Shown: one piece after another, positions 2,000 to 43,600 of the stretch
Position numbering within the stretch: position 1 is the first letter of the stretch
Layout: the number at the start of each line of letters is the position of its first letter
Source of the DNA: Catajapyx aquilonaris
Taxonomy: Eukaryota
Direction: 5' to 3'
Assembly: GCA_000934665.2 (NCBI GenBank)
Contig: KZ538035.1
Location: forward strand, 1-64,000
Length of the DNA stretch: 64,000 bases
The notes under the pieces: generated by a model
Database searches by the model: none
Seen by the model: only the letters and a program-made list of their open reading frames with translations
What the model was told of the DNA's origin: nothing
Position numbers and translations under genes: made by a program

Positions 2000-2200
2000 C
2001 GGCACAGTGGCGTCGTTGTATTTGCTGGGGTCTTTCCCCTCTCAGGTCCGGAGTTCGATGCCGGGATCCGACAGAGGACACTTCCTCAATGGAAAGAGTT
2101 TCGATAAGCTCTCTACGTACATGGCGTGGGTTTTCTAGGGGTTTCCCGTCTCCTACCAGCACTACCAGAATTTATCAAGATAGCAGTCAATAAATAAAGA
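2000..2200 (+). mobile_element. tRNA-derived SINE with V-domain-like core
   Basis: A-box-like TGGCGTCGTTG, B-box GGAGTTCGATGCC (2050-2062), GCGTGGGTTTTCTAGGGGTTTCCCGTCTCCTACC resembling the V-SINE core, and an AATAAATAAA tail. Confidence 0.6.
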
Positions 2201-2273
2201 GGATCAATGAACAGATGATCCCCTAAAAGCCTATATCACGAGGGTCTCCATTGCCAACTTATTACACCCTCCT

Positions 2274-2834
2274 TCACGGAATGTAGTCGGTTTTACCTCT
2301 TTCGAAATCTTCCATCCAGGTACGTTTCCTATTCCTACATTTCTTGCACCGACCGACCTGAACTTCAAAGAAGAAGACACAAAGAGACAGCATGCATCCA
2401 AAGAAGAGCAGGTAGAACACCCCTTCCAATGTGCCGACGGAAAAGGCATCGATCTTGGGCCCAGTCTGGAGACCGACAGCGCGTATGGCTCTGAGAGACT
2501 CCATGGTGACGTTTCTCTCCATCATGCCTTCCCATCTGTACTTCATCCCGCTGGACACGTAGTTGGACAGCCAGTAGGAGAAGCTGGCCGTGAAGATGCT
2601 GTCCCTGTTCAGAACTATGGCCAAGGTGATCATGGGTGACACTCCTCGAGTCAGCCGAAGTCGACTCTCACCCCTCTGGTCCAAGAGAGCTCTTGCACGA
2701 GGAGCGTTTGTGGACCAGCGGAACACGCAAATTATGTCCTCGTCCACGCAGCGTTCGTAGCAATCGTTCAAGTCGTCGGTCGCATTCATACGTTCGTAGT
2801 ACGGCTGATAGATCTCCTTGTCTTGTGCAAATAT
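2274..2834 (-). CDS. Ionotropic receptor exon 2 (S2 lobe, last TM, stop)
   Basis: Acceptor TTGCAG at 2840-2835, in frame with exon 1. Confidence 0.85.
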   Translation of the reverse strand: MFAQDKEIYQPYYERMNATDDLNDCYERCVDEDIICVFRWSTNAPRARALLDQRGESRLRLTRGVSPMITLAIVLNRDSIFTASFSYWLSNYVSSGMKYRWEGMMERNVTMESLRAIRAVGLQTGPKIDAFSVGTLEGVFYLLFFGCMLSLCVFFFEVQVGRCKKCRNRKRTWMEDFERGKTDYIP

Positions 2835-5071
2835 CTGCAAGATAGTTTTATTCTGTATTGTTTAAATGTTACCTCTCATGAATATTTTTGCTACTGTGAG
2901 TCTGGACATCCCTGTTATTTTAAATACGTGCGACACTGAGGGCGGCCAGGGGGATGCACCAGGGAAGCGCTAGAATAATATTGTCTGGCAGCTTTATCGA
3001 GAAATATCGAAGTATGGAGGAAGGGGTAAAATGGATTGACATGTGATGACGTTGCACAAGTAGGCCTATGCATCCAGAAAAACATAATTACGAAAGCCTT
3101 GAGTCATGGTGGTAAAATGATTTTGGCTATTATGCACTCTCAGACAAGAGTAAGTCCCCAAAGTCAAATTCTGGCCTAGTCGCCTTACCTGGTGGGTTCT
3201 TTTTCCAATTTTCTATACCGACGTGTCCGGGTAGAATTTCAATCCTTCTTCTGCCCAGGGCGAGAAAAAAAAACTTCTGGCATTTCGGTTGGTCCGAAAC
3301 GTACTTACTATAGGCTACTGTATTTTTTTAAACAGTATACTCGACAGTTCCGTACGTCAGTAGGCCTGATAAGGGGCAGATGGATGGATATGTCTCACAT
3401 AACACGGGTGAAATCACTACGAGGAGGATTATAATGATGATTATGAAAAGTAATTACTAATAATAGAAATAGTCTTATTACCTCCATAAGTGATTTGACC
3501 AGCCTTTCAGTCATGACTGGAAAATTGCTGGCTAGTAATTCCTTGAGGGTCTGTGGCAGGATCTCAGAAGGAGGCGAAGTGAGGAGATCGTATAGCGCTG
3601 TCTTGTAAGCAGTGCCCAGGACGATGGATATGAAGAGCCAGACGCAGATGAACACTCGGGGAGGAAACTGAGGAGGTACGTATGTCGGAAACTGCTCCAA
3701 AAGAGACTCTGAAATATACCCGAATGAATAGAAAAATGACGAAAGACAGGTGTGGTGACGCGAGTCCTGGTCCAAGTCATTTGATGAGGACACAACAAAT
3801 AAGGTCAGAACGGAAGCGCAAAAGGTACTCAGAATAGCTATCAATCCCCACACCACTGGCTGAAATGGTCGCACGAATACGTCTGGAGTCAATATCTTCC
3901 GAGGAACTCGAGTCACCATCCCGGCGAACTCAATCCCAATTGGTGTTGTGTGATCAGTCACGATGAAGGTGGCCAACTCCATTATGCCTTCTGGCATGAA
4001 GGGATTCCTGCGAAATACGACGTCCAAGTTCATTTCGAACATCACAACGTTCTCGGGACATGGGTCGGGACAACCAGGTCTTACAAACTGGTCCAGTTCC
4101 CATCGGAACTGGAGGGCCTCACCTATGAAGCAGAAATGTCGAATACGCCACATGTCCAACGCGTTTGTGACACACTGCCCAGAGGAGAAAGGAACGGGAA
4201 ACACCGAACGCAGCAGGGCTCCTTGCATGTTGAATGTCGTGTCAGGCCACATGATTTTCTCATCTTCTGGAGAGAAGCCACTGCCTTTGAAGTCGTCGTC
4301 TTGGGTTAACAATCTGGTACTCTCTTCACCATGATTGATACCGTAGATATAGTACGGGAGGCTGAATATTCCAGGCTCGCCCCCGAAGCAGAACCAGCAG
4401 ACAGACTTGATAGACACATACCATTGCGAGGAATCAGGTGATGTTGGGTTGTCATGGCCTTTTCGCATCTGTCGGGGAAAGAGGCCCAGCTTGAACTTGT
4501 ACTGGTTGGCCGGAGGAGCAAACATGTATGACTGTGGCTCCGGTGCATCTCGTACCCAAAGCACAAACCGGTTCAGCGCCTTTCTGACAACCACGCTGCT
4601 CTCAATTCCGTTCATAAACTCTTCCAATTTGACTAGGTTGTGAGTGCAGCCCGTTATGAAGAAGAGGGTGCAGACTGGGAAAATATACTTCTCTCCAACT
4701 TTGGGCCTCTCTATACCGTCAGTCTGGTTGTGTAGGATTCCAGGTCCGGAGCAGGTCCACTTGGCACGGTCCTCCTCACCACTGACGTGGACCACCGCCG
4801 GCCGAAGCTGGGATGCAGCCCCCATTAATATCTGCACCAGAGGCCTAGGGAAGTAAGGCTCCGAGTCCAATGTGATCACCAAAGGACACTCTGGTAGCAA
4901 CGTGCGGCGCATGATATTCACCGTGGCCTCGCCCACCGCGTCTCCAGCTGTGTCCCACATAATGCTCTCTTCTGATGTTCCACTCATTGTCTTCCACACG
5001 TCGACCACAGCATTATTGCATCGCCTTACAAGCAGGATCAAAAGATATGCACTTTTAGGCAATAACAACAT
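2274..5071 (-). CDS. Divergent ionotropic receptor (variant iGluR family chemoreceptor), 2 coding exons, about 716 aa
   Basis: Join of 5071-3482 and 2834-2274 via a phase-0 GT-AG intron (ATGGAG|GTAATA ... TTGCAG|ATATTT). Motifs: PFQPVVW before M1; RVFICVWLFISIVLGTAYKTALYDLLTSP..PQTLKELL (gate helix analogous to SYTANL); SSGMKYRW; last TM LEGVFYLLFFGCMLSLCVFFFE. Start chosen at the signal-peptide-like MLLLPKSAYLLILL; an upstream in-frame ATG exists at 5170. Confidence 0.88.
3482..5071 (-). CDS. Ionotropic receptor exon 1 (N-terminus, S1, TM/pore region)
   Basis: Part of the 591-codon ORF 3395-5170. Donor GTAATA begins at 3481. Confidence 0.88.
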
Positions 5072-8000
5072 TGCTATTACTTGTTTACCTAAGGAGCTTA
5101 ATTTCTGGCGATACGTGTCAAAAGCAGCCTGACACTGACTTACTACATCAAGGGAAGTGAAATATGTCATTAATAATCGGTTTTGTTCCTGGTTTTGTTA
5201 TGAAAGTATTGTATGCTCCAGTTCTTCAGCATGTGGTGCATTAATGTTATTTTACTGGAAAAGCAGCCGACCATAACTCGATTGTGAGTCTCAGAAGCTG
5301 TCTTTATGTGGAATTCTTATTAACAATTCAGGAGAGTGCACTGAGGCTCTTCATAATGCGACGTTGGTTGCGTGCCTACGTACCGTATATTTACACTTTG
5401 GTTAATGTACTGAATCTATGACGCTGGTGAATATTTCTCATTCATCTTCATTCCACCTCGATTTTTACAACTGCCTCCAATTTAACCTTCTTAGAAATGG
5501 AAAATGAAAGGGAAAATGCCAACTAAATGTCAATGAAGGTAAGTAACGATGTCATTTTCATATCGTTTCCAGTAATTAAAGGACAAGTCACTACATAGGA
5601 GTGAATAGCATTGCCTTTATTGACAAGAAATATGTGGGAGGCGAGTAAAAAAAGTGTGGTCGGGAGTCGTACCGTATGAAAGGGACAGTATAGCCTCTTG
5701 TTTTTATTATATACAGTAAAAAGCACAAGCGTAGCAAAAGAATAGATGTCTTTAGAGATACACTCGGAAAATATTGCTGTACCCGAAGAGTCAGGAAAAA
5801 CGTGGACATGTACATTATGTGATAATATGTACAGCACAATACGGTACACAAAGTAATGAGAAGGGCTCCTCGAGCCCTTCTTGTCGTGCATTACGACAAT
5901 AATGATATTGTCACAAAAAAGTCACACGCGCACCTCATTCACTCTCAGGGCCATTTTCATCTACTATTGATTATGACGAAGTATATACGGTTTAGAAATA
6001 GAGAGAAAATAATGTCTCGTAATTGAGTGGTTCTCTGAATAAATGATATGCCCCTTTTTGTTGATTTCCTCCCCTTCTGGAAACACCCATGACTTGTGAG
6101 CCATTGGACATCCCTGCCAATTCTGATCACCTGTCAATATTTTTTATCTATTTTTATGTCTTAGTTGTGTAAAGTTGCAATTGCGGATATATCAATACAA
6201 TTTATTCCGATTACTTAATGTCCGCTAAATTATTGGTTGCTTTTCGACATAAACAACTAGGAAAATATGTAAGTTAAATTGATATAACTTACAGTGTTGC
6301 ATATTGGCATGATAAAGTGAACATGTTCAAATTGAAAATGTTTACAAAACTAATGTAATTATAAACATTTCGTTTTATGAGTCAAATTCAGAAGATCACA
6401 AGATGGCAATTGAAAATATAAATGCAAATTTTCTGGAATCCGGCAAAAATATTATCACGATTAATTTTGCGTGGTTTTTAGGTAGGAGCTACTTTACCGC
6501 TTTCTATAGGCTACCGTTCATGTATTTATATAACTGTGTGTATATAGCCATATATTAAAGGGCAGCTCAACACCGTCACTATAGTCTTCTGAGCCAATCT
6601 TGCCTTTGCACAACATCTCAAAAATTATAGTATGCTGAGAACCTGTGGAGCCTAGCTACAAGTACAATGCAGGGTACATTGAAGTTTACCTCAATCATAT
6701 TGCATCACCTTGTACATAGGAGGTATTATCTTAACGACTTAGGCAGATATAAATTATATGGTCCAATCATTTGCCATTGATTTCAAGATCGTTAAAATCC
6801 AAATGAACCCGGCTTGTATATTTAGTCCATTGACTTACACCTGTAGTTGTTATTTTTAAATCAGGATCACAATTATGTGCAAATGTTTGTTACTCCCGAG
6901 ATTACTGTGGTCCAGTACTTCCACATAAAAATTAAATTATTTCTTATATGGTTATACAATAATTCACCCCCCGATATTCTGTGCCTCATTTTTGAGGGAT
7001 AGAGCATAGCTCACAGATTTCATACTATGGAATGACTGAATAGTGGTAGAATACACTTCTTCATGCAGTTCTTGAACTTTATTACCTGAGTTGTGAATAA
7101 GAATTAGGCTATTAACCAACAGACAGTGACTTTGAATGTTGAAAACAAGTAGAGTGACTCTTGCTTGGCTTAAAACCAATACTCTGTAACCGTACGCGCT
7201 GGTAAAAAACTTAATTTCTATTACAATTCCTTAGATATTTTCTTCCGTTCATAATATTCTATTTAAAGAAGAATTCAGTTTAGTAAATCTCATGTTATGT
7301 TAGGAATGTGATCAGAGTGGATTCAGAGACAACTGTTCAAGCCTGGGAAACAGCTGTTACATAAGAAATAAGCTGTGTTTTCAAGTTAAGTGAATTACCA
7401 AGGCCCAACACAACACTCAAATTCAATACCCTTTTTGCGCCCCTGTTACATTCCCCAGAGTAGCAAAAAAGGTTGATATTTGTGCTTTGCATTAATAACA
7501 CAATGGAAAAATGCCCCGAAATTAAGTGCAGATGTCAAAGAAGGTACTATCAATCCTTTCGCTCAAAACCGAGGAATCCACATTCGATTGAAAAATCTTG
7601 GCTCTGCACCCAAAATGCAAGGGTGAAGGCGAAAGGTCCTTTGTTATCAGCAGCTGATGAACAAATCACGAGGTCGGCATACTGATCCAGATTTAAAATG
7701 GAAATTGTGTGCACCATAAAAAACTCCATAATGGAAATCGTGACCGACATGGCAGCGAGATGATGAAACGAAGAATAATTTGAGTACTACCATCAAGTCT
7801 TAACCCACTTTTCAAGGAGTCCCGGTGCAGTCATTTTCACTGATTTATCAAAGGTATCAACAAACATCGACTATCAACATAACATTGAACGGGTTTTCTA
7901 CAGTATAGCTTGAATCTGAAGGTAACAATTTGACAGAGATTCGACTAAACAACTGATGAGCACCTGTTTGAAAAATTCTGATGATGATAATAGCTTAGCC

Positions 8001-9646
8001 ACATTGATTTGGAACACTAAGAGTGGAATTGGAGCAAGAGTGGCCTTCGACAAACACATTCGTATCCAGTACTATTTTTAAGACACTAACAAGTTGAGTA
8101 AGAGTTGGAAAAGGCCTATAAGTACGTAACTATTCGTTTAATTTGAGAAAACCTCTCGTGGAGCGAATATTTATTGCGCTAACTGTTTTACTCATATCTT
8201 GCTTGTTGATTTATTGTCATGCCGGAGGCCTCCCTTTCTACTCTTACAATCCTCTTAGCCCCATTCTTTCTTGTACACTGTACCACGAGTGACTTGGGTG
8301 TCGAATGACGTGAAACACTGGGAGATCCCTCATGCACTTTGCATAAGAACAGGAGCACAAAAACAATATTGTGCTTCAATCTTTTGTACAATTTCACACC
8401 TTCACTGGGCAAGCAGTCACCATAATTCCTGTGTGTCTCTTGCCTCAGAAATAAACATGCATCGCACCACAGATGACGTGGGTTTCAAATTGTCGAGGAT
8501 AAATTTGTTATCACTAGAAAGAAATGAAAGGAAGATACTAATGGACTGATATCAGCGCTGGACATTAATTTTTTGATTAGGAGAGCATTGTTATTCGTCA
8601 AATTTGCGCCTCACTCCAGCTGAATAGCACTCGTGGATAATCACGGTGTGTAGGGCAGGGCGATGGCCTCTACGTGTTTTGCATGGTTACTTACTGTATT
8701 AATACGTGGTATTCATCTAAATGACGCATATATTCAAGCAAATGCAGGTTCACGAACATTGAGTTTGAACAAACTCGCATTCATACAAACGGACATGTGC
8801 AGCATTAATAAGTGACGATAACGGACAAGAGCTTAGCTGCAGGAGATAAGGAGCTTTTCCAAAGGAAACAGTGCTGTTCGACAGAAAGCTGCATCCCGAT
8901 CTTACAGTCATAAAAAGTGAACTGATCAAGATGCAAAGCCCGAACAGGTTCATCCTTTGGCAATAAGTTACTTTTTTATTTTTAAATATATAAGAAATCA
9001 TGATTTGTTCAATATCTCAAAAGTTTATACGGACAGAAAATAGTTGGCAAGTACTGCAGTTCACTTGCAGGTGAGTTTGGTGCTCTTCGAACTGACTCCA
9101 AAGATTACCACAGGCTCAAAAAGCCTCTAGGACATACACAGTACCGTTATAGAACCTGACCAGACTTCTGGACCTTGTGCTAGAAGGTCAGCAATGCCAA
9201 CCATATTCATAACATCAACATGTGCAGAAATGAAAAATAGTGACGAAGCTACAGTTTAGCTAACTGGCATTGTTTTTGGTCCCTGGGGAAAATTGGCTGG
9301 CGACGAGTAGTAGAGCATCATAAGATTATACCACGGCATTCGCTTGAGTCGTGATTAAAAATCCGCGTCTGAATGAGCTCTGCGATTTTATAAATCGACC
9401 GGCGAATTGTTGCCGCCTCGAGTCATAACAATACATAGTCAGCTGAACCTGTACTATGTGAATGGGCGGTGAAAAAACAGGCGAGCGAAATGATGTGAAT
9501 AAGCCTCTGAAGAGTGAAGGCGCGGGCTCAAGTGTAGGTTGCAAGTGAGTAACGAGTTGTACAATCAACAAGTGTGGTTGAGTAGTATGAAAATATTATG
9601 AAGGCTGCTGTCTTGTACAGGAGGAGGCCTATAACGGATGCAGGAA

Positions 9647-10195
9647 TTAGAACCAGGTTCGAACCCCGACCGCTTGGTCCTTATCTGGGACTGACTGCCA
9701 CGAGACGGCTTCTGTGGGGGTAGCTGTTACACCAGCCGCTGCCACCACCGCCCCTGAGGCCCCGGGCTGCTGTTGTTGTTGTTGCTGCTGCCTTGGCCCG
9801 GGGCTGGTGTTGGCGCTTCCCCCTGGGGATACGTGGCTCAAGGGGAAGATGGCCGAGCTGTAGCTGCAGCAGGCCAGTCCCAGAACGCCGCCCATCGAGG
9901 GCACACCAGCACCACCGGCACTTTTCTTCTCTTCTCCCAACTCCTCCACATCTTCTTCCACATCGTCCTCTCCTCTTCCCACTACGTCCGCGCTCCCTGG
10001 AGGCTTTGGAAGCTGTCTCCGGATGGTCCTTCCTGGCGAAGGTGCCTCTTCAGACCTCTCCGGAACAGGCTGCAGTGACAAAGAGAGGTCAGTTGGCCGT
10101 ACCTCTCCGTATAAAACATTTAGTACCTTGGGTGGTAACATGAGAAGTGCTGGTGGAACGTGGTGCGCCCTGTTAGGGCGACGGTTCTCCTCGGA
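9647..10195 (-). CDS. Putative C-terminal extension (182 aa) of the MATH-like gene beyond its TAG stop
   Basis: Same frame as exon 7 with no stop from 10195 to the TAA at 9649-9647. GC-rich and coding-like. Encodes RRQLPKPP, an acidic tract, poly-Q and ...VRTWF*. Confidence 0.5.
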   Translation of the reverse strand, partial: SEENRRPNRAHHVPPALLMLPPKVLNVLYGEVRPTDLSLSLQPVPERSEEAPSPGRTIRRQLPKPPGSADVVGRGEDDVEEDVEELGEEKKSAGGAGVPSMGGVLGLACCSYSSAIFPLSHVSPGGSANTSPGPRQQQQQQQQPGASGAVVAAAGVTATPTEAVSWQSVPDKDQAVGVRTWF

Positions 10196-10529
10196 CTATG
10201 CGTACTCCGTGTCGGTGGAGGCGCTCCTGTCTCCCAACGCATAGGGGCGGTGGTCTGCGTAATACGGCCGCTGCTGGTCGTGGTGGTGCGACGCCTGGTG
10301 GTGGTGGTGATGGTGGTGCGACCCCTGCCGGTGGTGCTGCACGTCGTCCACGTCTTCATCTTCCTCTTCGTCCCCCTCCCCTCTCAGCACGTAGCCATCC
10401 GGAGTACCAGTGCGATCCTCCGGATACCCGCCCGATCCCCTTCCGTGCGAGTAGGACATGCTCTTCTGGTAGCTGAACAGCTCCCTCTCTAGGCTGTAGT
10501 TCTCAGCTTGCAGGGCTTGGATCTCACGT
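10196..10529 (-). CDS. MATH-like gene coding exon 7 (coiled coil, acidic and His-rich tail, TAG stop)
   Basis: Acceptor TTTTAG|ACGTGAG, phase 2. Ends ...STDTEYA TAG. Confidence 0.85.
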
Positions 10530-13500
10530 CTAAAACGGTGAAAACGTGATTGATAGCACTCCATAAAGTTAGTTATTTTAAGGCCGTGTTACTTGCCTCA
10601 TTTGGTAGTTGTGCATGCGGCAAACCTCGTCGTACTTGTGGTAAGTAGACTGGAAGAGGAGGTAGGACTCCCCCCACTCGATCTGCACTCGCAGTTGGTT
10701 CTTGTCCGTTAGGTACGAGCTGGCCGGTTCCTCCAGCTGGAACATCAAATTACTTACTAATAGGTAGCAAGAAAGTCACATGATCAGATCACCTATAAAT
10801 ATACAAGGTGTTTCCAATTAGACTAACGACAATGGACTGACTATTACTCGGGTGGTCGTCTCGTTACTGAGATTTGCTTCGATCGTATGGTAAATATAGA
10901 ATATCCTATCCTTTCATTTTGATTGCCTCAGCGACTGACACGTGATGAGCCGCCATTTCATTTAACCTGAAAGGTAATACCACTTAAATTAAACAACAAG
11001 GTTCATACTAATGCTCTGCCTGCTTTCCTCGTCAGTCCATTGCTTAAACCGCAAGGCGTCGTGAGTCACTTCACATTGTTAACTTGTGAGACTCATACCC
11101 TAGCAATCGTCAATCCAAATAGGAAACACCCCGTACATATTCCAGCAGAAGCCAAATCATCAAGCCGGCAGCTATCTACCTTAATAAAACATGAAGCAGA
11201 GAGTATAAAGAGGGGACTACTATTATGTTGCTTCCTTCTAACTCATTCATCACTTGTAACGTTGTAAGCACTAGTTATAACTGAAAGACGGATTGTGTCA
11301 AATATGCCAGGGCGTAACTTAACCTAATGAATAATAATTGATTGTGAGCGTAAGCACCTCCTTCAGTCCTCTCCTCCGAAATCCCGCTTCTCTCTTCCCA
11401 AAACGGGAACAGCGCAGTAAAGGTGATGACAAATGGCAGTGATTCCCGCCCTCCGGATGCCAACATGCTTGGCCCCACCCATTTCCCGCCCAATTCGTCT
11501 TCATTCACAGCTGCGCTGGGTCCTCTCCAAATTCGTCTTATCTACCAGGGACTCACTTATCTCCCTTCCCGATAGAAGACGATGACCGCCATGGCAACAG
11601 AGGATTCAAATGGCGCCCTATTCTCTTCACCAGCAGATCCAGAGGACGCATGGATCCAGCACCAGTCACTAACAGATAGATAGCGGCGGAGATTGCTTTG
11701 AGTACCGACAAATTGCGGCCCAGTCTAGTTCTCTCATGTGAATAATAGATAGGGGCATCCCCAGTCCTGTATCCAAGCAGAACAGGGCGTAACGAGGGCC
11801 CTAATTACACCTACCCCACTACGCACCGCAGAACGACGCAGAACGTCATCGGGCCAGTCCGCATCGCCATTTGCACCTGATACACTTCTTGTTACGCACG
11901 AAGCAAAGAACGTAACAAGATGTTACATAATCCAGTGCTTGCTGGTCAACAATGAGGTTTGAATATACTGTATACATGAAGAATGGCCTAGAGCTCCAGT
12001 CTATAATTAGGTTGTTGTAAGCGTTAAAAATAGTTTAGTACTGGCGAAAGACTTTTGTTTTGGTTCTTTAGAGAAAGTTGAGAGTTTCGGAGCTTTACAT
12101 CGGCATAATACTGCTGAGAACTTCTCTCGTGGGATGCCGGTGTGGATGGCGTATAATGTGTTTAGGGAAATGTTTTCCTTTCTGGAGCATTTCCAGGATG
12201 GATGTCATGTCCAGCGGGCAAATTGGGAATGGTGGAGACGTTCTTTGATCTCCGCTGAGTAATAAGCGAAAGTATTTTATGACGGGGTTGAGGGCCTGCT
12301 CGCAGCACGTTGGATCAATTTTGACAAAAATATAGTTGTGAAAACAGGATGGGTTCAACGCAACAGGAAAGGTTAATGGCCAGGAATAGAACATTTAACA
12401 TGTTTTTTGGGCTGTGTTTACAAATTTTATAAACTTTATGGTTATAAACTTTATACTTCTGTATGGTTGAAATGTGAATTGTCCAGCCCACCATAGTGCA
12501 ACAGGTATAAGTGTCAGCATATACTATAACTCGAAAGTTACGAGTTCGTGGACCACTTCGTCTCAACCTAAGTTCATGCAGATATGTTTACGCAAGTTGC
12601 TCTGGAGTTGCTCATTCCAAGCGAGCGGTTAACATTACCAACCCATACAGTAGTCTACTTGCTGGAATCAGATTACAGCGACCTGGAGAAATAATTAAAT
12701 TGCAGCTCTACAAACTACCGTGTAATTAGGCCACAACCCATTCTTTCCACACAATGCTTTACAAAATTTTGCGCAGTTCAGATTTTGGTAAGCTGTAAGC
12801 TAATTAAGTGCCCAGACCTCTTGTCACTGCAACTCTGCTGTGATTAATAAAATAATACGCTTTTGCTTTCTTCTGCAATAAATTAGAGAATAATTCGTCC
12901 TATTATCTCGTGGAAAAAGGATTGCAGTAAAAATAGTGCAGTTTTGTCGAATATACCTGAAGACGCCTATGATACCTAGGTCATACCAGTAATACGTCTA
13001 CAAATTTGAAGTCCTTCAATAAATTTTTAGTTTATTGAAGCTTTAAAGTGTTCATAGTGCATACGTGTTGCAACTTACTTAACCAGATGCATAATGGAAC
13101 GGAAACTAACACATTCTACCCTTCCAACAATTACACTCCTTTTAAAAACATATGCTATATTGTGAACCAATCATCATCATTAAAAATTCTCCAGGCCATC
13201 ATTTGCAAATTGGCCCTAAATATAGTTTTACTAGAGTGCATCTAGGTAAATACGCTACCGGGTAATATTGGTAAAACCTTTACAGGGTATTGTACGAAGT
13301 TCGTGCACATTCCGTTCCTCCAGTGTTACTTAAGAGTAAATTCTCTGAGGTGTATTAGCTATCATATGCATGTAGGATAATGTTTCAATTAGCGCAAAAA
13401 TACTGTGCATTAGAAACACTTTATTTGACCAACAGAACGTGTTATACATAGTGGAAGCTGCCCTTCATTTTTGCACGCCTTCCTTATTGATTCGACGCAA

Positions 13501-16500: not shown

Positions 16501-19500
16501 TGCCGTTTTGCTAACATGTAGACCTACAAAAACGTCCATACTGTACAAATGTGGACGTCCCTGTTAGAAGGGTGGTGCTATGTTCGTGGGAACAGTTACG
16601 TGTAATAACCTTTCGTGGACAAGATAGAGGGTCCCCAATCTGATTTATAGTATTACTCGGTAATTCTTTTTGGAGATGTGCCGAGTGGTGGACGCCCGAA
16701 TTACAACTAATGGAAATTGATGTCTTTCCGATTGATTTCGCTGGAGAGGAAATATCACAATGTCAAATCTTAATTCAACATCAGTAACTTCGCACCAGTC
16801 ACAAATACGCTTGCAGACTACTTGGCATCTAAAAAGCGGATAATAATAGGTCTAATTCTTGATTATGAACTTTGACTTACATCTGAACCGATGTTGTAAT
16901 CGGCGCGCCGAATAGGTGACTTTGTAACCTGCCAACATAGACAAAATTGCATCGTGTACATTTCACAAGTAAAGCATGCAATAAGCAGTTTGTAGCTGTT
17001 GCATATGCAAACGTGTGAGTCATAAGGCCCCACCATTGCGAGTTGAAATACGCAGCATATATACTATGTGCAGGGTGTGTCTGGCACAAACTGGTGCACA
17101 AACATTGCACTTGCATGAAGTTAAGAGGCCAAATGAAGCGCAAGTACGGGCCGTGTAAAAATATCACTCTAATTGTGGCTGTCAGTTCATTTTGAAATTA
17201 CATTACAATCCTCACACAGACGTACTGCACATGACCAGTTCAATAACCTATATCCATACAGTATGTCCATTGAAGATTCTTTGGGCTGTTATTTCATTAG
17301 AATTGACGGCGGCATGTAGAGGAATATTTTGAACGTGTAAATCAGTGTAGGCATAATAGCGAAATAGACCGGAAGCTAAGCAGAGAATTACCTCTTTGAT
17401 GGGCACGTCGGATTCCATAATTATTCCGTCATCAACGTCCTCTTGTACGTAGTAGTGTGAATATGGTCCCCGAAGCAAGGGAATGGGCTCCATGTGACCA
17501 GACTTGGCATGGTAGCGTAGAAGGTAGGCATTCCAGCACACATATCTGAAAAGCAAATCATCAGTTTACAGTTGCATCCATTCGAAATTCTGTATGCCAC
17601 ATAAGTTAATGGCATTTAAATTATCGGGATCAGGAATTATTGTTTTGATCAATGATGTGACTGAAATGAGATTGGCAATTTTCACTCACTAAATTATCTG
17701 CAACCACCACACATGGTTTACATGTGATAGTGTGGAGTATCTGCACATGGGATTTGTGGCTGGGTAAATAAATAGTGTGATAGTGTGATATAACTGTGAG
17801 GTAGATCATGTGCATATTAATTATGTAACCCACACTATAATTTAAAGGTAGGTATATTTGATCATGGTACAGTTACAAAAGCCTCATAAATATATGTCGT
17901 ATAGAATATACAAGTAGATCATTCATGTTCCCCCCCCCCCCCTTTTGGGATCAGCAAGAGATAACGAGCTGAATATTGTCGCTTCATGCCTGGGGATTTA
18001 AACAAAAAAGAGAGGGGGGGGAGAGAGATTTGATTTGCGCGGAGGTCTGACTGTAATGCAATAACCTGTGTATTGTTGGGAACCTCTCCTCAAATGTCGG
18101 TCCTTCTACTGCTACAACATGGCATGCATCCAGGTTTTTCCTTTTTGGAGTTTAAACGCACAAAAAGGCATCCATTTTGGATCAGTATAGTTAACCTGTA
18201 GGGGTTGTTAAACCACCAATAGTATTTCTAACTTTCTAAATGCACATACTGTACGCTAAATGTGCGGTAATACCTCGTAAATCATAAATCATGAAATGAA
18301 TGTAAAATTACTCGGAAAAAAAAATTCACACGACTACTTTTGTAACACTGTATCAACCCATCTCCCTTGCTTAATATAAAATGATATTCCGCCAGCACAA
18401 TAATTAGGATTCATCAGCAAAGCAATATCAACTCATTTTCGTAAGTCATGGGGAAAAACTCACAGAAAATGTTTTCTTTGATCTTGTATTAGAGATTGGG
18501 GAGAGAAGACGGATTTTGATTAAGATTCCAGGAATTAGACCGTCTTTGGCACTACCACTCCCTCGAATGAAGTAATCAATTCTTGAAACTCTTTGCAAAT
18601 GAGGTTTGGTCGGATTCGACTGGTATCAGAGCCTGAGAGAGATGCGTCGCGACGCTCTGCACCCAAAGGCTGTCAGCATGGCCAACAGAGAGAAATTCAG
18701 TACTTCTTCTCGTTTTACCCTCGCGTTAATGTCAAACAACTGGGACAGCTCTGCACTCAACTGGAGAAAACCAATCTTTTATGCTGATTTTAGTAAGGAA
18801 AGACGTTTTACTGTCGCCTCATGCAGATTACGTACTGAATTCTGCAAATGCGAAACTTGCATTTAATCTCAGGCTAACCGCCAATTCGAATTTACAGTAT
18901 ACTAATTACATTTAAATTTAGTACATTAGTGTACTTCCCGCAAGACTGTATACACTGAATGAAATAGCTTGGTTGTGGGTCTGTTAGCTGCTCTGACCAC
19001 AATATTAGTTCAAGAAAACCAATCACCTCAACAATTATTCTGATTGGTTGTCATACACAAAATTGTGGTTGAACCAAATCTGCTCATAAAATTCGGTTAT
19101 AGCAACTACAATCAAATATTTTTCTTTCAGTGTAGTAGTCCTCTTCAAAAAAAGGGCAACTGAAACACTAATGGTATAATTTGGTTTGTGACTTTCATCA
19201 AAACGCAGTCCATGAAGCAAATGAAATCCTCAAGCCCTGAGGCGGAAGTAATACTTTTTTTACGGGACCAACGCGCATTTGAAATGTAATAGGCACCGGG
19301 TAGCCTAGCAATCAACAACTATCATTCTCTCCGATCTTCCCGTGCTGTCATCAGGTTTCCCGGAACAGAAGGTTTATTAAATTGATTGATTGAGTGATTG
19401 ATTGATTCTCCCCGCAGAAAGCTGAGAGCAAAAAAAATCTCGTTTGCAGCCAGACGAATGATGTAATAACTCACTGGCTTTGAATTCATTTTATTCGAAC

Positions 19501-22500: not shown

Positions 22501-25500
22501 AGAGCGGACTGTGTGGGAGTGATGGTCGCAGAGGGCTAAAGGCAGTATCACATACTGTATAAGGCAGTGGGAGGCTGGGGTATAATCCTTTTAGATTATG
22601 TGGCTATATACACCAGTTTTCATTCGGCTGGCAAGGCAGCATGAGGGTGAAAATAATTGATGCCTCTGAACAGCCTCTGAAGCTGAGCAGAAACACCATG
22701 CCTTTGAAGCAGCAGTAGTACTTGGCTTCCGGTGCCTGCCTCTCTTGCTCAACCTCCAACCTATACTTCCAGGGGGAATTCTTCAGCAGCAAAAACCAAG
22801 GAGACGAGTCCAGGCCAGAAAAAGATGGAGCAAGAAAAACTCTAGAGAACAAACCAGGTCACATATTCCAGTACACAGCCGTACCGAATTGGCTTACAAA
22901 ACTCCGCAAGCTTGTTCGGATCTATCGTGAAAGGAGTGGAGCTCAATAACTCTTTTTCCCCGAACTTTCAGCCGGAGGAGATGCGGTAGGTACATACTGA
23001 TTATTCCGCCTACATGGCCAGGCTTCTGCGCTATAAGCCGTATATGGGATGGATGAGTGTGAGATAGCGGGCAAGAGAGGAGGAAATTCCCTGTGGGTCA
23101 TCCCGGACACAGAGCGGTCTGCAATTCCCTTGCACCATAAGAAGATAGATGGGATATTATATAAGTCGTGGCCGACTAGATGGAAAATGAACCCTCATCT
23201 CGCAGCCTCTCCACCTTCATTCCACTTCTGGAAGGACGTGAAATACATCATGCCTTCCCGTCACTTCAGGAGAATGGCTTACTACGTTTTCCTGCTAATA
23301 AAACTGACAAAAACCTCGTGTGTTGAATTATGCTCTATTATATCAGAGAGGTGGTATATCTTCCATGGTCTATAAATACATGTTCATTGTGTGGCCTACC
23401 ATCCCGGCTAACAGATGGTATACCACATAATTATAACAAGGTCTACTCACCTATACGAGGGCTACTCACCACAAAGGAGTTCTTGTCAAACTTGCTTGAT
23501 TATCTCGGAGAATTTTCAGCATATGAATAGTATATAATAACTGGTGTACTCTACTCGTACAATACGTTTTGTGTGCACTATACCCAGCAAAAACATTTTC
23601 CAGTCAAGTTCTCTCTGTCGATGTCGGACTGATTACAAACCAGCAGTGGGTCTTAAAATTTTGGTCGGCTCATCCCCAGATAAAAGTGTCCTCATTTTGA
23701 GCTGCCCGTATACGCTTCGAGCAGGTGGACCGATATCGAGAAGCGTATAGAGACAAAAGAGTAATCTGAAAGATGTTTGCCAGTGGAAATGACAACACGG
23801 AGTCAGGCCTCTAGGCAAATGGAGTCCCATGTCTGCGGCCTTTGATGTCGAAGCAGCCAGTGCGAAAAAAAAAGCAAGCCAGAGAGAGATTAGCTCTGGA
23901 TCTCCTCTTTGAAACGTGCACATACCTGTGGCCTACAACATTCTAACGCTCCGATTGCCCACGTAGAGCAGATTGCTCACTTTATAGATCCGATTTAGCA
24001 CGCTTTGATTATCCAAGGGCGAGGAACACCAATAATTCTTTTTTGCTCTATCGGTTTACAAAATGAATGCCTATGAGGCTCTTGGTGTTGGCCGGAGAGT
24101 GAGTCAACAAGTGCCGGAGTGAGAAGCAGAGAGCTGACCGATGAATGGACGGTCATTAGCCAGCCCTTTCGCATTAGCAATGTCGTGAGACTTGGCGGAC
24201 GGTGACAACCGCCTCTTCTGTCAACGTCATTTCCTGTCATGAACCCTATGTGTGCTTGACTGTTGATTTTATACGCAATTATTGAGTAGCGATGTGAAAG
24301 TAGGAGAGAAAATGTCTGACCTGAGGTGGTTTCGAGGCACGTTGTGGATGTCCTTGTAGATCATTCTCAGGCGCAGGGTCTCCGAGTGTGTGTCTGCCTC
24401 GAGTCCCCAAGCCTGCTTATCTCGGTCGTAGCAAAATGTGGCACTTGCCAGGTGGTGGTTGAATGGAGGAACCAGCACCTGACACACACAGACATTAATT
24501 CATTAGTTCATTTCACTGCCTCATTACCAGCTGTGGCCTTTCATCCAGGTCAATTATCTTGTACAGATAGGTAGTTATATTAATCAAAATACTATTACAT
24601 GCTGACATTTAAATGCGTTTTCTGAAACGCTTGCAATAATTCAATAATAGGAGAAAGGATGCGTGCTGGGATCGAACTCTGGACCTCATAAGTGTGGAAG
24701 GCTGCGGCGCTCATCACTACACTACCGTGCGCCCCTAACGCTTACAGTAATAATAAGGGAAGGACAATGCTGCCATGTGGTGCGAGAGGAAGCACCCGCA
24801 CATTATGACGCGGTACTTTTAATCGCCGATTAAATCCAAGTGAAGCCCAGATTGGCAATTACAAAATTGCACTGTGAATGGATGTCATCCATGTTATTAC
24901 CCCTGTTATAAAAGGTGTTAGCTTGACACACGTTACACTTGTTTATCCCGGGCAGAAGTTATGCAAACCACACTTATAAAGTCACAATACGCGTAACCGA
25001 CGGAAATAATTGAAATTAATGACACGGCATTTAATGGGTCCGATTAGTAACTAGTAGTCATTAAAATTTTCATGACTCGGTGCAGGAGTGAACTCGTCAC
25101 CTAGTTTAAACAAGCATCAATTGTATTTGGCTTTCCATGTTCGCGCTCTGGGTAGGCCTTATTAAAAATAAATAATGATGGGCCAAGCTTCACTATGCCA
25201 TGAAGTGGTTACGGACCCGTTTCAATTAGGGGTTTTCGATAAATATTAATAAGGATACCTCACTAGACAGCATTGATTTTCCAATTATTTGCCTCTTCTG
25301 GGACGAATAACGTAGTCATATTGTCATTCACCATATGCATGATCAAAACCAGAGTTATCGTACTTATAGGCAATTTCACCACAAAACTTGAAGATGTTAA
25401 ATTGCATAAAAGAGGACATAAACCATATTGCACTGGCCATTTCTGGTTGAAGCCATCTTAAAGAAGCAAATCTGGGAAACGTGGCAGCAATATCGATTGT

Positions 25501-27243
25501 AAGGTTATACACGTAACGCAGATAAGGTGTGACTGACTGACCTCACTGAGGGCGTTGGCCAGGAAAAGCTCCAGAAATAGCCTGAGCGTGCCCTTGAGGA
25601 CCACCTCGTGCAGGCGGGCTCTTGGTGGCCAGCCGTGACCTTTGCCCTCGCAGTCCGATATATCGTCCAGAAGTCCCGAATCAGCTCTCCTCTCACCCTC
25701 GCCCAGCATTACCTGAGTTAGTCAGAAATATTATTTTTCAAACCAATTGACCATGTAGAATTTGTGGACGTGCTCGCTCCACACTGGCGGAAAATTCTTG
25801 AAGGAAAATTCAGAAAAAAATCATTTTTGCAATTGTCATGATGACTTCTGTTGTTCATGCAAGTGAAATTCTTAATGTTTATGTATGTTACATTTATTGG
25901 AGCTGAATATTCCTGCGAGATTTTCAGCAAGTGGGGAGAGGGCTTGAGGCAGTTGGAACGGAGAAGCTATTTTTATTATTAGCCCCAGTTTATCGAAGTA
26001 GCTGATGTTGAATTTATTATACCACTTAATTACGCGTACACCCCCAATTTAGCAGCGCCTTCATTACGCTTGTTAATTGCCATTAACAATTCAGAACCTA
26101 CTGTTTGGATTCTCTGTTCCCCAACTGCTTCTCCCCTTCCGGCACTACACGTCACTCCTAATGGCAACAAGGATGCAAAGAGGCAATGTCCTGACCTTGT
26201 ACCTGACCCGACACTGCCGGTCGAACCCCGTGAGCCTGTTGAGGAAAAGCAGCAGTCTCGGGTCCGAGTCCTTCCCGTGTGGGTACACCGCCACGTTCCA
26301 GTCGAACCCCCCGAAGGAGAAGTAGGTAGACTCGAACTTGTGCACCTTGCCCCCTGTAGAGGACGAGGATGATGACCCTCCCGCAGCGCCTGTCCCTGAA
26401 CTGACCCTCAGGTCACACTCGAACAGGGTCCTCACGTTGCTCAGGCTCAGCTCCAGCTGGAACTCTCCGTTCTCGTCCGTGAAGTTCCTCTCGTACAGAT
26501 CCGTCACTGCCATGTACTTCCGGTTGCCTTGGGCAGGGGAGTCGAACGTGAACTTCACCTGGTGGTGGCAGGCAGCAGTGTGGGGGAAATGTTTTTAGAC
26601 ACAGATCATAAATGATGTCATTGCCCAAAATGTTGATTTATGATAATGGGGCGTATGTTATAGCAAGGGGACATTTAATTAGCGCGTTTAAATTAATCCG
26701 CGGGAGAGTGCTGTTGCAGCATTTGCTAATCGCTGGTCATATGTGGGCTTTATTTTTGCGTGATTTTTGCTATTGCCAGGAGATTATTGTGCAAAATATT
26801 TGCTGATACTATGTGGATTTTCCATGTTGTGGTTCATGCAAACATGGCATGATTAGTCACAGCTTAACATAGCTAATTATTATGGGATTAATTATTTGAG
26901 TTTATACGTAACTCATGCAGTGGAATATTGCAGTCAATACACCCCTGCTGACCTGCTTCCCGCTGAAGGACTCGTTAACGCTGAAGTGCTCTCGGTTGAG
27001 CAGGGTGAAGGTGAAGTCGATGTAGACCCTCATTCCTTCGGAAGGGTTCCTCCAGACCAGGTAGACCCCGAGGACCTTCTCCGTCCTGGAGAAGGTAATG
27101 GCCCAGCGCTGGTATCCGTACGTGAACTCTTTGGAGGTCACATCGCGGTGCAGGTCTCGAGTCACAGACTTGGTCACTATGAAGGTGAACACGTGCGTGT
27201 TGGCACGGTCCTGCACCTTCACGAAGCGGTACAGCAGCGACAT
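10196..27243 (-). CDS. Uncharacterised protein with three tandem MATH/TRAF-like domains plus coiled coil, 7 coding exons, 536 aa
   Basis: Join of 27243-26953, 26558-26196, 25712-25542, 24478-24321, 17545-17392, 10736-10597 and 10529-10196. All six junctions are phase-compatible and give one uninterrupted frame. MATH hallmarks: SKEFTYGYQRWAITF..LGVYL..FTFTLLN and STYFSFGGFDWNVAVYPHG..LLLFL. Heptad coiled coil REIQALQAENYSLERELFSYQKSM. Confidence 0.88.
10597..10736 (-). CDS. MATH-like gene coding exon 6
   Basis: TTCCAG|CTGGAG gives LEEPASSYLTDKNQLRVQIEWGESYLLFQSTYHKYDEVCRMHNYQM(R). Ends at AG|GCAAGT. Not in the ORF track. Confidence 0.85.
17392..17545 (-). CDS. MATH-like gene coding exon 5
   Basis: TTTCAG|ATATGTG, phase 2; YVCWNAYLL...SDVPIKE; donor GAG|GTAATT. 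Confidence 0.85.
18430..18830 (+). pseudogene. Highly decayed DIRS-like RNase H / methyltransferase-like relic
   Basis: Across frames: MGKNSQK, ILIKIPGI, EPERDASR, DSSALNWRKPIFYA. These follow the order of the DIRS motifs MGGT.S / HIPG..N / P.IDLFASR / DAF...W....YAFPP. Visual similarity only. Confidence 0.3.
19949..20026. repeat. 10-bp tandem repeat (ATACCGAAYT-like), about 7-8 degenerate copies
   Basis: accgaagtat tccgaattag accgaactat accgaattat accgaactat accgaatgat acggaatgat. Confidence 0.85.
22800..23300 (+). pseudogene. Decayed DIRS-like reverse transcriptase relic
   Basis: IFQYTAVPNWLT (cf. YQY..LP.GL), YGMDECEI (cf. YxDD) and LWVIPDTERSAIP..KIDGILYKS (cf. LGF.IN.EKS.L.P...I.FLG...DS) in the expected order, with stops and frameshifts. 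Confidence 0.3.
24321..24478 (-). CDS. MATH-like gene coding exon 4
   Basis: TGTCAG|GTGCTG; VLVPPF...CYDRDKQAWGLEAD...NVPRNHL(R); donor CAG|GTCAGA. Confidence 0.85.
24661..24735 (-). mobile_element. tRNA-derived SINE head (or tRNA pseudogene)
   Basis: The minus strand reads GGGGCGCACGGTAGTGTAGTGATGAGCGCC...GAGGTCCAGAGTTCGATCCCAGC, with A and B boxes, and resembles the head at 2000-2065. No intact acceptor stem. Confidence 0.55.
25542..25712 (-). CDS. MATH-like gene coding exon 3
   Basis: ACTCAG|GTAATG; VMLGEGERR...LANALSE; donor GAG|GTCAGT. Confidence 0.85.
26196..26558 (-). CDS. MATH-like gene coding exon 2
   Basis: CACCAG|GTGAAG; VKFTFDSPAQGNRK...FGGFDWNVAVYP...RVRYK; donor AAG|GTCAGG. 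Confidence 0.9.
26953..27243 (-). CDS. MATH-like gene coding exon 1
   Basis: ATG at 27243 (MSLLYRFVK). An in-frame TAG lies just upstream. Acceptor TTCTTTCAG ending at 27292 implies an upstream untranslated exon. Donor CAG|GTCAGC. Confidence 0.9.
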
Positions 27244-40626: not shown

Positions 40627-43600
40627 TTCCAGCTCCGTACATATTGTAACGTGGGAAACACAGCAATGTTGCTCTCCCTACCTAGCCTATTAGAGCTGTA
40701 TGAAGTTCGTGGTATGGAGCCAGATCCTCTGTAATCCAAGTGATCCGCTCCCCGCTGCTTCGGACTCACTTGCTCCTCCGCCAATTAGCAAGAATCAAGC
40801 GCCTCATTATTGCAACTTGCGTCACGCGTCAGTTCCGAACGCTATATTATGCGACCTCCATTACCGGTAGAAAAGCACACACATTTGGAGCAACAAGTGA
40901 ATTTGCCAGAATTAGACTTGCTAACTGGCGTTACCAAAATAGTGTTTTTGTGTTGCAAATTCGAGTCAATTTTCCCCGCTCTCATATTTTGACAGTGGGG
41001 TCAGTTTGCTGGAGAGTGGTAAATGCAGGGATGGGCATCTGCAATCATTTCTTGCCAACGTTGACTCTCTTTGTTTGGTCCATCGGTAATAGCTTTCCAA
41101 ACAATGCTGACAGATTGAATTGGAAGCGCAATCGCTTCATGATGAATTATTTACACAATACAAAGCTTGCACTATACAGGAAGATTGCGTGGCATGTGAG
41201 TAGGTTTGTTTGTCGTCCTTCCTGACATAATTATAGTTTGCTCAATTCTGATGACAGTGAGGTAGGGGCAAAATGCAACAGCGGCTGTCATGACCCTGAT
41301 TATTTTGTAGTAGCACCAGCTCTGGAATGACCGCCAGTGTAGTGGTTTACAACATGGGAATTTTTGCGTTGAGGCGTGAAATTGGCTCCGGACATGAGGA
41401 TTACTCACTGGCGCATTATCCGACAGGTTATGGTTGTGCTCGGATAAACCCATGCCTGAAGCACACAGTGTATATGCAGTCAACGAGGCCTCTCCCACAT
41501 TTCTGACACTATTAGGTAACCTAGGGGGCGTTTAGGAGGAGGGCGCTCCTGGTGAGGCCCTCGGGAGTCATTCCGTCTCTTTGAGGTTCAATCTGGGAAT
41601 ACGATAGGATATCCGGTCGATAAGTGTACGGGCTTCCGTTCCCCTAGACGTAATGGAGCTCAATGTTCTGCTGCCTATTTCTCAGCCCGGAAATGATCTG
41701 CTTGCCTCCCCACCTAACTGCATGTCTTTTCACTTTCCACGAGCTTTGATCAAGCCAGGCTGGATTGAGTTAAGGGACGACTACTAGGAGGCCTGGAATG
41801 CTGGGAGGTGCAGTTCACGGGTCACGGAGGAATTTTGGCCAGAGAAAATATTTTGATATAATATCACGCTTTGTAACCGGCACCTGCAAGTGGCTTTCTT
41901 GTATTGTCGGTCCTTCATGGCTGTGGATTCCGGGGAATTCAAAGCAAACATAGGGAAAGTCATGGTTGGAAGTTACGCTTGTCACATGACACCTTGCATT
42001 ACCTTCTGCTGGTGCAGGAAGTGCAAGCGGTTTCGGTAGGGCAATTTATGGGGCAGAATTTGATTCTGAATGAGGTGTCGAGACAGAGAATTCATTCTGT
42101 CGTTGTATTATTTTCATACTTGGAATATCGGTGCGGCCACGTTTCGATTACTTTCCTTGAATGCCAACATATTTGGTATGCACAGTAAAACGTTGAAAAG
42201 GCCCGTAGCGGCCGTAGCACAGAGAAAAATGGTTATAGAAGACTATGCCATGCAATTTTTGGCGCGCGAGAGGTCGTGAGCTGTCGTGGGAACTGGGACC
42301 TTTCCCGATTAAATTCTGCTTTATGTTTGATCATACCCTATGAATCGTCACATTCAAACTAGCATATGTGTCACCTAAAATATTCCCCACTCTAAACTCA
42401 CTATTGATGAATGTCACTGCCTCAATGATTATTTTAAATTAACGCAGATTAATGCATGTTGGAGCTGCAAATGCTGTCCATTAGCCTCAGCATATTTCAG
42501 TGACTAAAATCAATGCAGATTACTATTTTTTTATTGAAACCCAAGCCTCTTTTTAGGTCCACATTTCAAAATCTGGCCAGCTGCTGTTGGTGCAGAGAAC
42601 AAACCACAGTCACAAAGCCCACTATCCGAGTACATAATGGCCTCCTTTTCTTGGTTAGCCACGCACTGATCAAACTCCAGTTGACTGCACGAGCGTAATG
42701 TACGTCGAGTCAGTTTTTTTTCTTGGGCTCAATATTTGCCTTCTTGTTTGCTTGGCGAGGGTTTCATTGACTTTGCTGTTGAAGGGACTCTGGATGGACG
42801 AGGCTCCAAGCCGTCTCTTCTCTATGTACAGTACCAACCCCAATTATTGAGTGCTCTTTTCGCACACTGTCAACGACTCACTGTTTGAACTTTTCCTATA
42901 CATTTTGTACAGTGTCATAGAGTAGACCTACATCATTCAAGAAATGCCATTGTGAACCATTTTTAATTGTCTTTTTTCTCTGAAGTGAAAGTGGGGCACA
43001 GCCCCACGGAGGTGTGGGGGGGGGGGGNNGGGGGGGGGGGGGGGGGGGGCGAAGCCCCACCGCCTCGCAAAGCGAGTCCTAACAACCCTAAAGCTACAAG
43101 CACTTTTTTCACGAGTGTTACAGTACGTTCTTGACCTTTACACGACACCTGTGCTACTCGATTTTCCAACATTGATCAGATCTTATCACAACTAATAAAA
43201 GTTCCCCGTACCATTTCAGTCAATTTATCTCGAAGTCAATCGCATTAAGCTCCCTAGCTGAACAATCAATTTAAATAAGGACAGGAATCTTTCCTTCATG
43301 TTACAGGTAACCGATAAGGACATTTCATTTCTTTACCTTGTTAAAATTTAACAGCGCCCCAAGTAGTTTCGCGGTGCCGAGTGCACGCTTCTGCTTGAAA
43401 ACAGTCCCCTTGGCCCCTGAAGCAAAATATTAGTTCACGGGCTGTTCCATAAGGCGGAAGGGAAATAGGTCGTGGCCAGGCAATTTAGGAAGTAATTGAG
43501 CCGCACGACTGCATACCAATGAGACAATGAGATTAATCGCAACGTACTGCTCCAGTGAAATGCTTCTCACGCGCTGCGGGTCTATTATTGCGTTTTAGTC

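Follow-up and report, generated by a model that had tools for sequence, protein, structure and literature searches.

An open reading frame behind the conserved stop codon of a MATH-domain gene in Catajapyx aquilonaris as a candidate readthrough extension

Readthrough in arthropods and the open frame behind the stop codon

Programmed stop-codon readthrough was reportedly described as abundant in Pancrustacea by Jungreis et al. in 2011. According to the estimates of a later study, at least 5-6% of the stop codons in Anopheles and Drosophila undergo functional readthrough, which is abundant in Pancrustacea (Jungreis et al. 2016, PMC5100048), and PhyloCSF screening of the bumblebee Bombus terrestris has yielded 851 readthrough candidates (Sun et al. 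2020, PMC7826183). Here we describe a candidate of this kind in a MATH-domain gene on contig KZ538035.1 of Catajapyx aquilonaris (GCA_000934665.2), of which the first 64,000 nucleotides, hereafter the window, were analysed. Behind the TAG stop codon of this gene, the same frame remains open for another 182 codons, hereafter the tail. As in known pancrustacean readthrough genes, the stop is conserved in position and an in-frame open reading frame (ORF) for a disordered extension lies behind it, and the window lineage falls within Pancrustacea on the family tree. Membership of the known sets has, however, been determined through PhyloCSF, ribosome profiling or reporters and is enriched for TGA-C, whereas the window carries TAG-T. 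As readthrough is well known and common in Pancrustacea, the finding is unsurprising in kind.

The closest counterpart is an extension behind the same stop of the same gene, after ...TEYA, in Hymenoptera and Blattodea (metagenome loci L001-L006 and L018-L021; proteins P0141 and P0162-P0218, including Camponotus EAG_03561 and bee LOC genes). It resembles the tail in being in phase with the stop, in its length (123-173 versus 182 codons), in being mostly disordered and in being GC-richer than the untranslated region (UTR) that follows. It differs in following a TGA (TGA-C or TGA-G) and in harboring the conserved helices RVHQNLVRMMDRRLSNVQ and FWETLTGLVCSLGALASRAAK, neither of which is found in the window, where only RRQLP is shared. 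One of the Bombus terrestris candidates, XM_012308853.2 (Table S21, PMC7826183), has the context TGA-CAAGTG, a length of 167 codons, a PhyloCSF score of 187.4 and a PhyloCSF-Psi score of 44.7. Its six post-stop bases are identical to those of the ant-like loci and its length fits the bee extension ORFs (154-162 amino acids plus a few codons), while it differs from the window in lineage, stop codon and tail sequence. XM_012308853.2 probably corresponds to the MATH gene in the bumblebee, although the table gives neither a protein nor a name by which to confirm this; if it does, comparative genomics has already predicted readthrough for the MATH gene. Among the matches listed in a literature search on readthrough, MATH domain and Hymenoptera, none dealt with this gene. 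The family-level extension is probably included in the published bumblebee list but otherwise undescribed, being split off as a separate gene in annotations.

The tail peptide runs from SEENRRPNRAHHVPPALLMLPPKV to VGVRTWF, and both the coordinates and the peptide of the 182-codon opening claimed in the first-pass annotation, from STDTEYA-TAG to a TAA at 9649-9647, are correct (Table 1). An opening of this length is infrequent by chance: when the 546-nt tail is shuffled 5000 times with its dinucleotides preserved, all 182 codons remain open in 15 cases and at least 100 codons in 181, while an independent-base estimate gives 0.0022. In frames 0, 1 and 2 the tail contains 0, 4 and 4 stops, and the three blocks of 546 nt that come after it contain 7/7/8, 6/13/10 and 10/6/12. 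The exon-like GC content followed by AT-richer DNA that had been noted earlier is likewise observed, with values of 0.627 in exon 7 and 0.604 in the tail, followed by 0.443, 0.401 and 0.401 in the subsequent blocks. Furthermore, codon-position periodicity in the tail (chi2 17.8; p 0.007) exceeds the range of 1.1-10.6 seen in five non-coding controls of equal length, although it is well under that of the coding sequence (CDS; 57 when scaled to equal length). The first canonical polyadenylation signal lies 1218 nt past the TAG, suggesting that the tail is probably inside the mRNA. Of the earlier description of the tail as disordered and Q-rich, the second part amounts to a single run of eight Q residues.

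The minus strand reads ...TCC ACC GAC ACG GAG TAC GCA TAG at the end of the MATH gene. A family search with the ortholog P0006 returned 153 proteins at E ≤1e-20, of which the 120 listed form the basis of the family counts given here. The motif [ST][DE][TSP][ED][YF][AV] is found in 63 of these 120 proteins, where it forms the very C-terminus in all 63, and 56 of the 67 listed proteins with the last-exon coiled-coil end in [ED][YF][AVI], the other eleven ending otherwise or being truncated. The position of the stop is fixed across the family and in 25 metagenome loci, while its identity varies between TAG in the window and TGA, TAA or TAG elsewhere. These comparisons identify the TAG as the normal and ancient end of the MATH protein. 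The first-pass annotation had raised a sequencing error, a nonsense allele or RNA editing as possible origins of the TAG, and all three can be rejected, as the position of the stop is ancestral and fixed and coincides with the end of every complete ortholog.

The MATH gene normally terminates at the TAG (10198-10196), leaving the invariant C-terminus ...STDTEYA free. We propose that a fraction of ribosomes would decode the TAG as a sense codon and go on for 182 codons (163 if an intron-like 57-nt segment of the tail were spliced out) to the TAA at 9649-9647. The product, a minor and longer isoform, would have its conserved C-terminus buried behind a mostly disordered, acidic and Pro/Gly/Ser-rich tail with one RRQLP and one hydrophobic, Cys-containing patch. 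We estimate the probability that the tail is translated by stop-codon readthrough in C. aquilonaris at roughly 0.45. On balance, translation of the tail by one route or another is probable, given the long open frame, a GC-rich block that stops where the frame closes and, most of all, the selection acting on the extension of the same gene in two insect orders. It is nevertheless unproven, as the tail has no homologue, TAG-T is not known to be leaky and the post-stop frames of Daphnia-like loci are short.

Extensions behind the same stop in other arthropods

The 25 metagenome loci, which carry arthropod copies of the last exon, were identified by a contig scan with the last-exon peptide alignment. 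The extensions of the ant-like and termite-like loci among them are homologous, with a 28-amino acid block near their ends sharing 54% identity (tblastn e-values of 4e-6 to 2.8e-5 against a small database). The six termite-like loci, representing four distinct sequences, differ at 1/0/13 sites in the first, second and third codon positions of the last exon and at 9/5/16 sites in the extension, without gaps, versus 19/23/15 sites past the second stop, where 221 aligned columns contain gap runs of 4, 1, 3, 5 and 1. By this pattern of substitution, coding-type evolution in the termite-like extension reaches as far as the second stop. The ant-like loci, four in number, differ too little from one another to inform on codon-position substitution. 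In a second blattodean lineage (P0186) 88 of the 123 residues are kept and indels occur in whole codons only, while a cockroach fragment (P0216) retains the N-terminal half of the extension.

In the termite-like loci the extension has its first ATG at codon 65, downstream of the conserved LPRRPG..., and in the ant-like loci at codon 38, downstream of the conserved RRQLP...RVHQNLV. The part preceding the first ATG has 4/3/8 variable sites, with eight codons showing synonymous changes only versus five with an amino acid change, and is thus like the remainder of the extension. Periodicity in the termite-like and ant-like extensions (chi2 11.4-14.7) is accompanied by a GC content above that of the following DNA and by a third-position GC content (GC3) departing from that of the CDS. 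In its intrinsic properties, namely periodicity, GC excess and GC3 shift, the window's tail behaves like these proven extensions.

Searching with a profile of the extension gave 57 hits, most of them annotated as a stand-alone 'hypothetical protein' of ants, bees or wasps (vespids, braconids, ichneumonids and chalcids). Bee annotations assign adjacent LOC numbers to the MATH gene and to the extension 'gene' (143179187/143179188; 143145990/143145991), while a 665-amino acid wasp model (P0141) fuses the MATH protein to the extension via a predicted intron which removes the stop. The JGI gene caller read two termite-like loci through the TGA as W, with P0171 corresponding to L004 under table 4 and giving a fused 'last exon - W - extension' product; both P0171 and P0186 are JGI metagenome proteins translated with TGA as W. 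AlphaFold2 predicts helices at residues 26-61 and 144-166 of the ant-like extension (pLDDT about 70-83) in an otherwise low-confidence chain, and no Pfam family was found in the ant-like or termite-like extensions. Four ant-like and termite-like loci matched no Rfam family at gathering score, and hence no SECIS model. Selenoproteins have been lost in Hymenoptera, and selenocysteine insertion in the TGA lineages was rejected on both grounds. The orthologous extensions provide a strong precedent for ribosomes passing this stop in other insect lineages.

Several further features of these loci were observed. Seven bee models (P0211-P0215, P0217 and P0218), six of them named NCBI LOC genes and one an unnamed Xylocopa product, are without the same 31 residues (YVGQAAHKRRRTTFWETLTGLVCSLGALASR, 93 nt, in frame), which form a hydrophobic helix, when compared with P0179-P0184. 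This gap may represent an in-frame, possibly alternative, intron within the extension. Nomia melanderi LOC116423832 is attached to a 484-amino acid MATH protein in one annotation and to a 119-amino acid extension ORF in another, and annotation pipelines therefore split or reassign the locus. A divergent relative of the last exon, ending in ...RRWESGK rather than ...TEYA, is present in L025 (3001-3817) and L023, and the 149-codon frame behind the TAA-C of L025 bears no resemblance to the other extensions.

Points against readthrough and alternative explanations

A number of results weigh against readthrough of the window's TAG. No tail homologue was found at E ≤0.001 among 1.84 billion representatives and no Pfam family was identified in the tail. 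When the last exon, an X and the tail were joined in one query, five orthologs were matched, each only to the part of the query that precedes the stop (at most 38% of its length). An hhalign comparison of the tail with the extension profile aligned only PSPGRTIRRQLP with PTPSNYRRQLP (14 columns; E 0.2), and the full extension profile scored -1.0 bits on the tail, which was matched by 379 of 2000 shuffles. A hidden Markov model (HMM) of the helix block W-E-x-L-x3-V-C-S-L-G-x2-A-x-R-A-A-K found none in all six frames of the 64-kb window, its best score there (8.4 bits; E 0.69) being outside the tail. The sole element shared with the hymenopteran extensions, the RRQLP pentapeptide, occurs in 15 of 62 extension sequences, and 660 of 20000 tail shuffles (~3.3%) reach at least one of the 130 conserved 5-mers. 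By none of these scores is the tail a member of the Hymenoptera/Blattodea extension family, the peptide of which follows the pattern RRQLP ... RVHQNLV.MMDRRLSNVQ ... FWE.L..LVCSLG..ASRAAK. A likeness seen by eye between GVLGLACCSYSSAI and the GLVCSLGALAS helix of the ant and termite extensions has no score behind it and was discarded.

The setting of the stop codon and its phylogenetic context point in the same direction. Leaky stop contexts include TGA-C and the CARYYA type after UAG, TAG-T is not known to be leaky, and the window's TAG-TCCGAG possesses neither feature, in agreement with the earlier caveat that TAG-T is not the leakiest context. The long extensions in relatives all follow TGA, and on a quick tree the window falls outside the insects that carry them. 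Coding-type conservation past the stop, which the first-pass annotation had put forward as a means of checking its claim, is apparent in the termite-like loci. In Daphnia-like and several other loci, the post-stop frames span only 0-52 codons. The 123 nt past the TAG fold only slightly better than shuffled sequences (z -1.71; 11 of 200 shuffles as good), a weak signal which has no equivalent in the ant-like or termite-like sequences. An Rfam search of window positions 7500-10800 gave only a chance isrG match (15.5 bits versus a gathering score of 100).

The alternative that survives best, although we consider it somewhat unlikely, is that the tail belongs to the 3' UTR and is not translated, its sequence being rich in GC, poor in T, of trinucleotide-type low complexity (acidic GAN runs and a CAG/CAA run) and open by chance. 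This would be in line with the absence of a tail homologue, with the TAG-T context and with the short post-stop frames in non-insect relatives such as the Daphnia-like loci, and a per-gene probability of 0.3% is not small when very many genes are scanned. It would also fit a codon usage that is blind to frame: a codon model built from the gene's own 536 codons, on which six of the seven real exons score positive in frame, gives -0.18 bits per codon in frame 0 of the tail versus -0.21 in frame 1, and the GC3 of the tail (0.61 versus 0.77 in the CDS) equals its overall GC content. This objection is weakened by the proven extensions, which likewise depart from their CDS in GC3. Moreover, of the remaining five frames of these 546 nt, four contain ORFs of 106-139 codons, and the tail DNA is therefore generally stop-poor. 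A chance opening does not, however, account for a frame 0 that is stop-free where the other two sense frames have four stops each, for a GC-rich block that begins at the CDS and ends with the ORF amid neighbouring non-coding DNA of 0.40-0.44 GC, or for a periodicity above that of all five controls. Furthermore, a selected coding extension is present behind the same stop in two insect orders, and as such the prior for a coding tail in this gene is well above the genome average.

Alternatively, the tail may be coding but reached by alternative splicing, from the phase 2 GC donor of exon 6 to an acceptor-like site at 10169 or through another weak pair, which appears rather unlikely. Since the codon position at 10169 matches the exon 6 donor, this splice would enter the tail frame while skipping both the TAG and the coiled-coil, giving a product ...HNYQM-R-AHHVPPALL... 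in which the coiled-coil and the STDTEYA end are replaced by the tail, and it counts among the points against readthrough. On a rough scale built from the splice-site consensus, the 10169 site scores 3.7 (real acceptors of the gene: 1.0-3.1), short introns do occur in the gene (67 nt), and the wasp model P0141 joins the extension through its predicted intron. The frame match is nevertheless a one-in-three chance, and no such junction is found in the 120 listed family proteins except P0141 (via its cluster), which is probably an ab initio model. All Nasonia Gnomon isoforms (501-518 amino acids) are short, with X1 (P0137) ending in TEYA, and the spliced isoform would drop the most conserved segment of exon 7. 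Splicing would also have no need of a frame that, as in the ant-like and termite-like loci, opens in phase directly behind the stop and is conserved ahead of any AGN codon usable as a shared acceptor. Removal of the stop by a donor upstream of the TAG is not indicated either: the best candidates inside exon 7 score at most 1.0, compared with 2.9-7.7 for the six real donors of the gene, which upholds the earlier statement that exon 7 has no convincing donor there. The 57-nt segment inside the tail is also unconvincing as a true intron, its donor scoring 0.7, and as it is in frame and stop-free, the tail frame holds with or without its splicing.

Finally, all or part of the tail may form a separate small ORF or gene that is translated from a Met of its own, at residue 19 or 101 of the tail, an alternative that we consider very unlikely. 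In its favour, the 57 database proteins represent the hymenopteran and blattodean extension called as stand-alone, bees have adjacent LOC numbers for the two parts, and of the six Gnomon models in bees, five begin at an ATG a short distance ahead of CRRQLP (the sixth, that of Apis laboriosa, at MMDRR). Against it, the conserved residues (RRQLP/LPRRPG...R.H) of the ant-like and termite-like loci precede the first ATG and evolve as coding, the ORF is open from and in phase with the MATH stop in 10/10 ant-like and termite-like loci, Logan ORFs beginning with 'M' may start at GTG or TTG (P0176 MERDLL versus L018 QVEREL), and neither Met in the window's tail is marked as a start.

The readthrough interpretation of the first-pass annotation is therefore partly supported: the ancestral stop, the lack of an in-exon donor and the orthologous extensions stand in its favour, while the missing tail homologue, the TAG-T context and the acceptor at 10169 do not. 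Translation of the tail in this species, readthrough rather than splicing as its route, and any function of the tail are inferred.

The MATH-domain gene and the meaning of a second product

The MATH-domain gene comprises seven exons on the minus strand (27243-10196) and encodes a 536-amino acid product, as determined by tblastn with orthologs and inspection of the exon borders (Table 1). The product aligns end-to-end with P0006, P0005 and P0007 at 59-60% identity. Pfam identifies MATH_2 (PF22486) in two stretches of the ortholog P0006 (45.9 bits; cut-off 32), while single exons of the window taken alone fall below the MATH_2 cut-off; the assignment of the window's product is given by its full-length colinearity with MATH_2 family members. 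Of the 'triple-MATH' architecture proposed earlier, MATH_2 domains are thus found, whereas a third domain is not among the stretches reported by Pfam in P0006. The coiled-coil REI.ALQAENYSLER.LFSYQ and the terminal ...DRS.STDTEYA are both present in the window's last exon, and the last-exon alignment has 18 invariant columns, including E, I, L, EN, LER, LF, YQ and TEYA.

Members of the family occur in insects, crustaceans, myriapods and chelicerates and, among the matches listed, are annotated as 'uncharacterized' or 'MATH domain-containing'. On the quick tree, to which the phylogenetic analysis was confined, the window is excluded from a well-supported insect clade and groups loosely with a collembolan (69% identity), Daphnia and a copepod.

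Table 1. Features of the window and post-stop frames of the 25 metagenome loci; a slash within a splice site denotes the exon-intron border.
Feature	Position	Strand	Remarks
Exon 1	26953..27243	-	start codon (MSLLYRF...); MATH-like
Exon 2	26196..26558	-	MATH_2-like
Exon 3	25542..25712	-	
Exon 4	24321..24478	-	5' border picked by frame, orthologs differ here; less certain
Exon 5	17392..17545	-	
Exon 6	10597..10736	-	
Intron 6 (last intron)	10530..10596	-	67 nt; GC-AG type (GAG/GCAAGT ... ttttag/A); phase 2
Exon 7, coding part	10199..10529	-	coiled-coil REIQALQAENYSLERELFSYQKS, His-rich linker, ...DRSASTDTEYA
TAG stop of MATH-domain gene	10196..10198	-	TAG-TCCGAG; directly after C-terminal ...STDTEYA
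Predicted hairpin	10156..10187	-	starts 12 nt past TAG; stem GUCGCCCU/AGGGCG (two arms); weak signal
Acceptor-like site (hypothetical)	10169..10184	-	ccgtcgccctaacag/G; first exon base 10169; rough score 3.7
Post-stop open frame (tail)	9650..10195	-	182 sense codons in TAG frame; GC 0.604
Intron-like segment in tail	10070..10126	-	57 nt; AAG/GTACTA ... ctgcag/C; donor 0.7, acceptor 2.8
RRQLP pentapeptide	10007..10021	-	tail residues 59-63; sole element common with Hymenoptera extensions
Sole hydrophobic patch of tail	9839..9895	-	MGGVLGLACCSYSSAIFPL; residues 101-119
TAA closing the tail	9647..9649	-	beyond: GC drops, stops frequent in all frames
First canonical AATAAA past TAG	8975..8980	-	1218 nt away; ~670 nt beyond tail end
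L001-L006 (termite-like)			TGA-G; 123 in-frame codons past stop
L018-L021 (ant-like)			TGA-C (TGA caagtg); 173 in-frame codons past stop
L007			TGA-G; 33 codons past stop
L009			TGA-G; 45 codons past stop
L013			TAA-T; 52 codons past stop
L012			TGA-A; at least 76 codons past stop (locus ends)
L011			TAG-G; 3 codons past stop (locus ends)
L024			no stop before locus end
L025			different C-terminus; TAA-C; 149 codons past stop
L008, L010, L014-L017, L022, L023			TAA or TGA; 0-23 codons past stop

Additional features of the gene and the window can be observed. A His-rich insert, HHRQGSHHHHHHHQASHHHDQQ, in exon 7 of the window (10270-10340, minus strand) is missing from most orthologs, and His-rich stretches are found at about the same place in Macrobrachium, Neodiprion, Cloeon and P0009. 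A retained intron 6 would read MRQVTRP-stop; five family proteins of other species, among the matches listed, end at ...QMR at the same exon border and may be retained-intron or truncated models. Elsewhere in the window, a cluster of ORFs of 100-195 codons (GC about 0.5) is located on both strands at 2200-4650, possibly representing a degraded mobile element or another gene, and no Pfam family was found in it. Besides the tail, eight ORFs of the window gave no Pfam family. Short runs of N (41 in all), at about 42990-43030 and 60600-60625, lie in G/C homopolymer-like stretches and are assembly gaps unrelated to the locus.

A broader and more speculative reading, which we regard as unlikely in its entirety, is that readthrough of the MATH gene is ancient, predating the split between Hymenoptera and Blattodea and perhaps reaching non-insect pancrustaceans, and acts as a switch that buries ...STDTEYA and appends a disordered tail carrying a short RRQLP motif and a hydrophobic segment with Cys. 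The window's tail would then be a diverged homologue kept through a change from TGA to TAG, and the 'separate genes' of bees and ants would be mis-split extensions. For annotation, the value of the locus lies in a post-stop stretch which is under coding selection in ants, bees, wasps, termites and a cockroach, and which is at present unannotated or recorded as a separate 'hypothetical protein'. With TGA-C, TGA-G and TAG-T at one orthologous site, the gene furthermore offers a test case for the persistence and turnover of readthrough sites across arthropods. If readthrough of the window's TAG is true, an uncharacterised pan-arthropod MATH gene would yield two proteins, one with the conserved ...TEYA end free and one in which this end is masked and followed by the tail.

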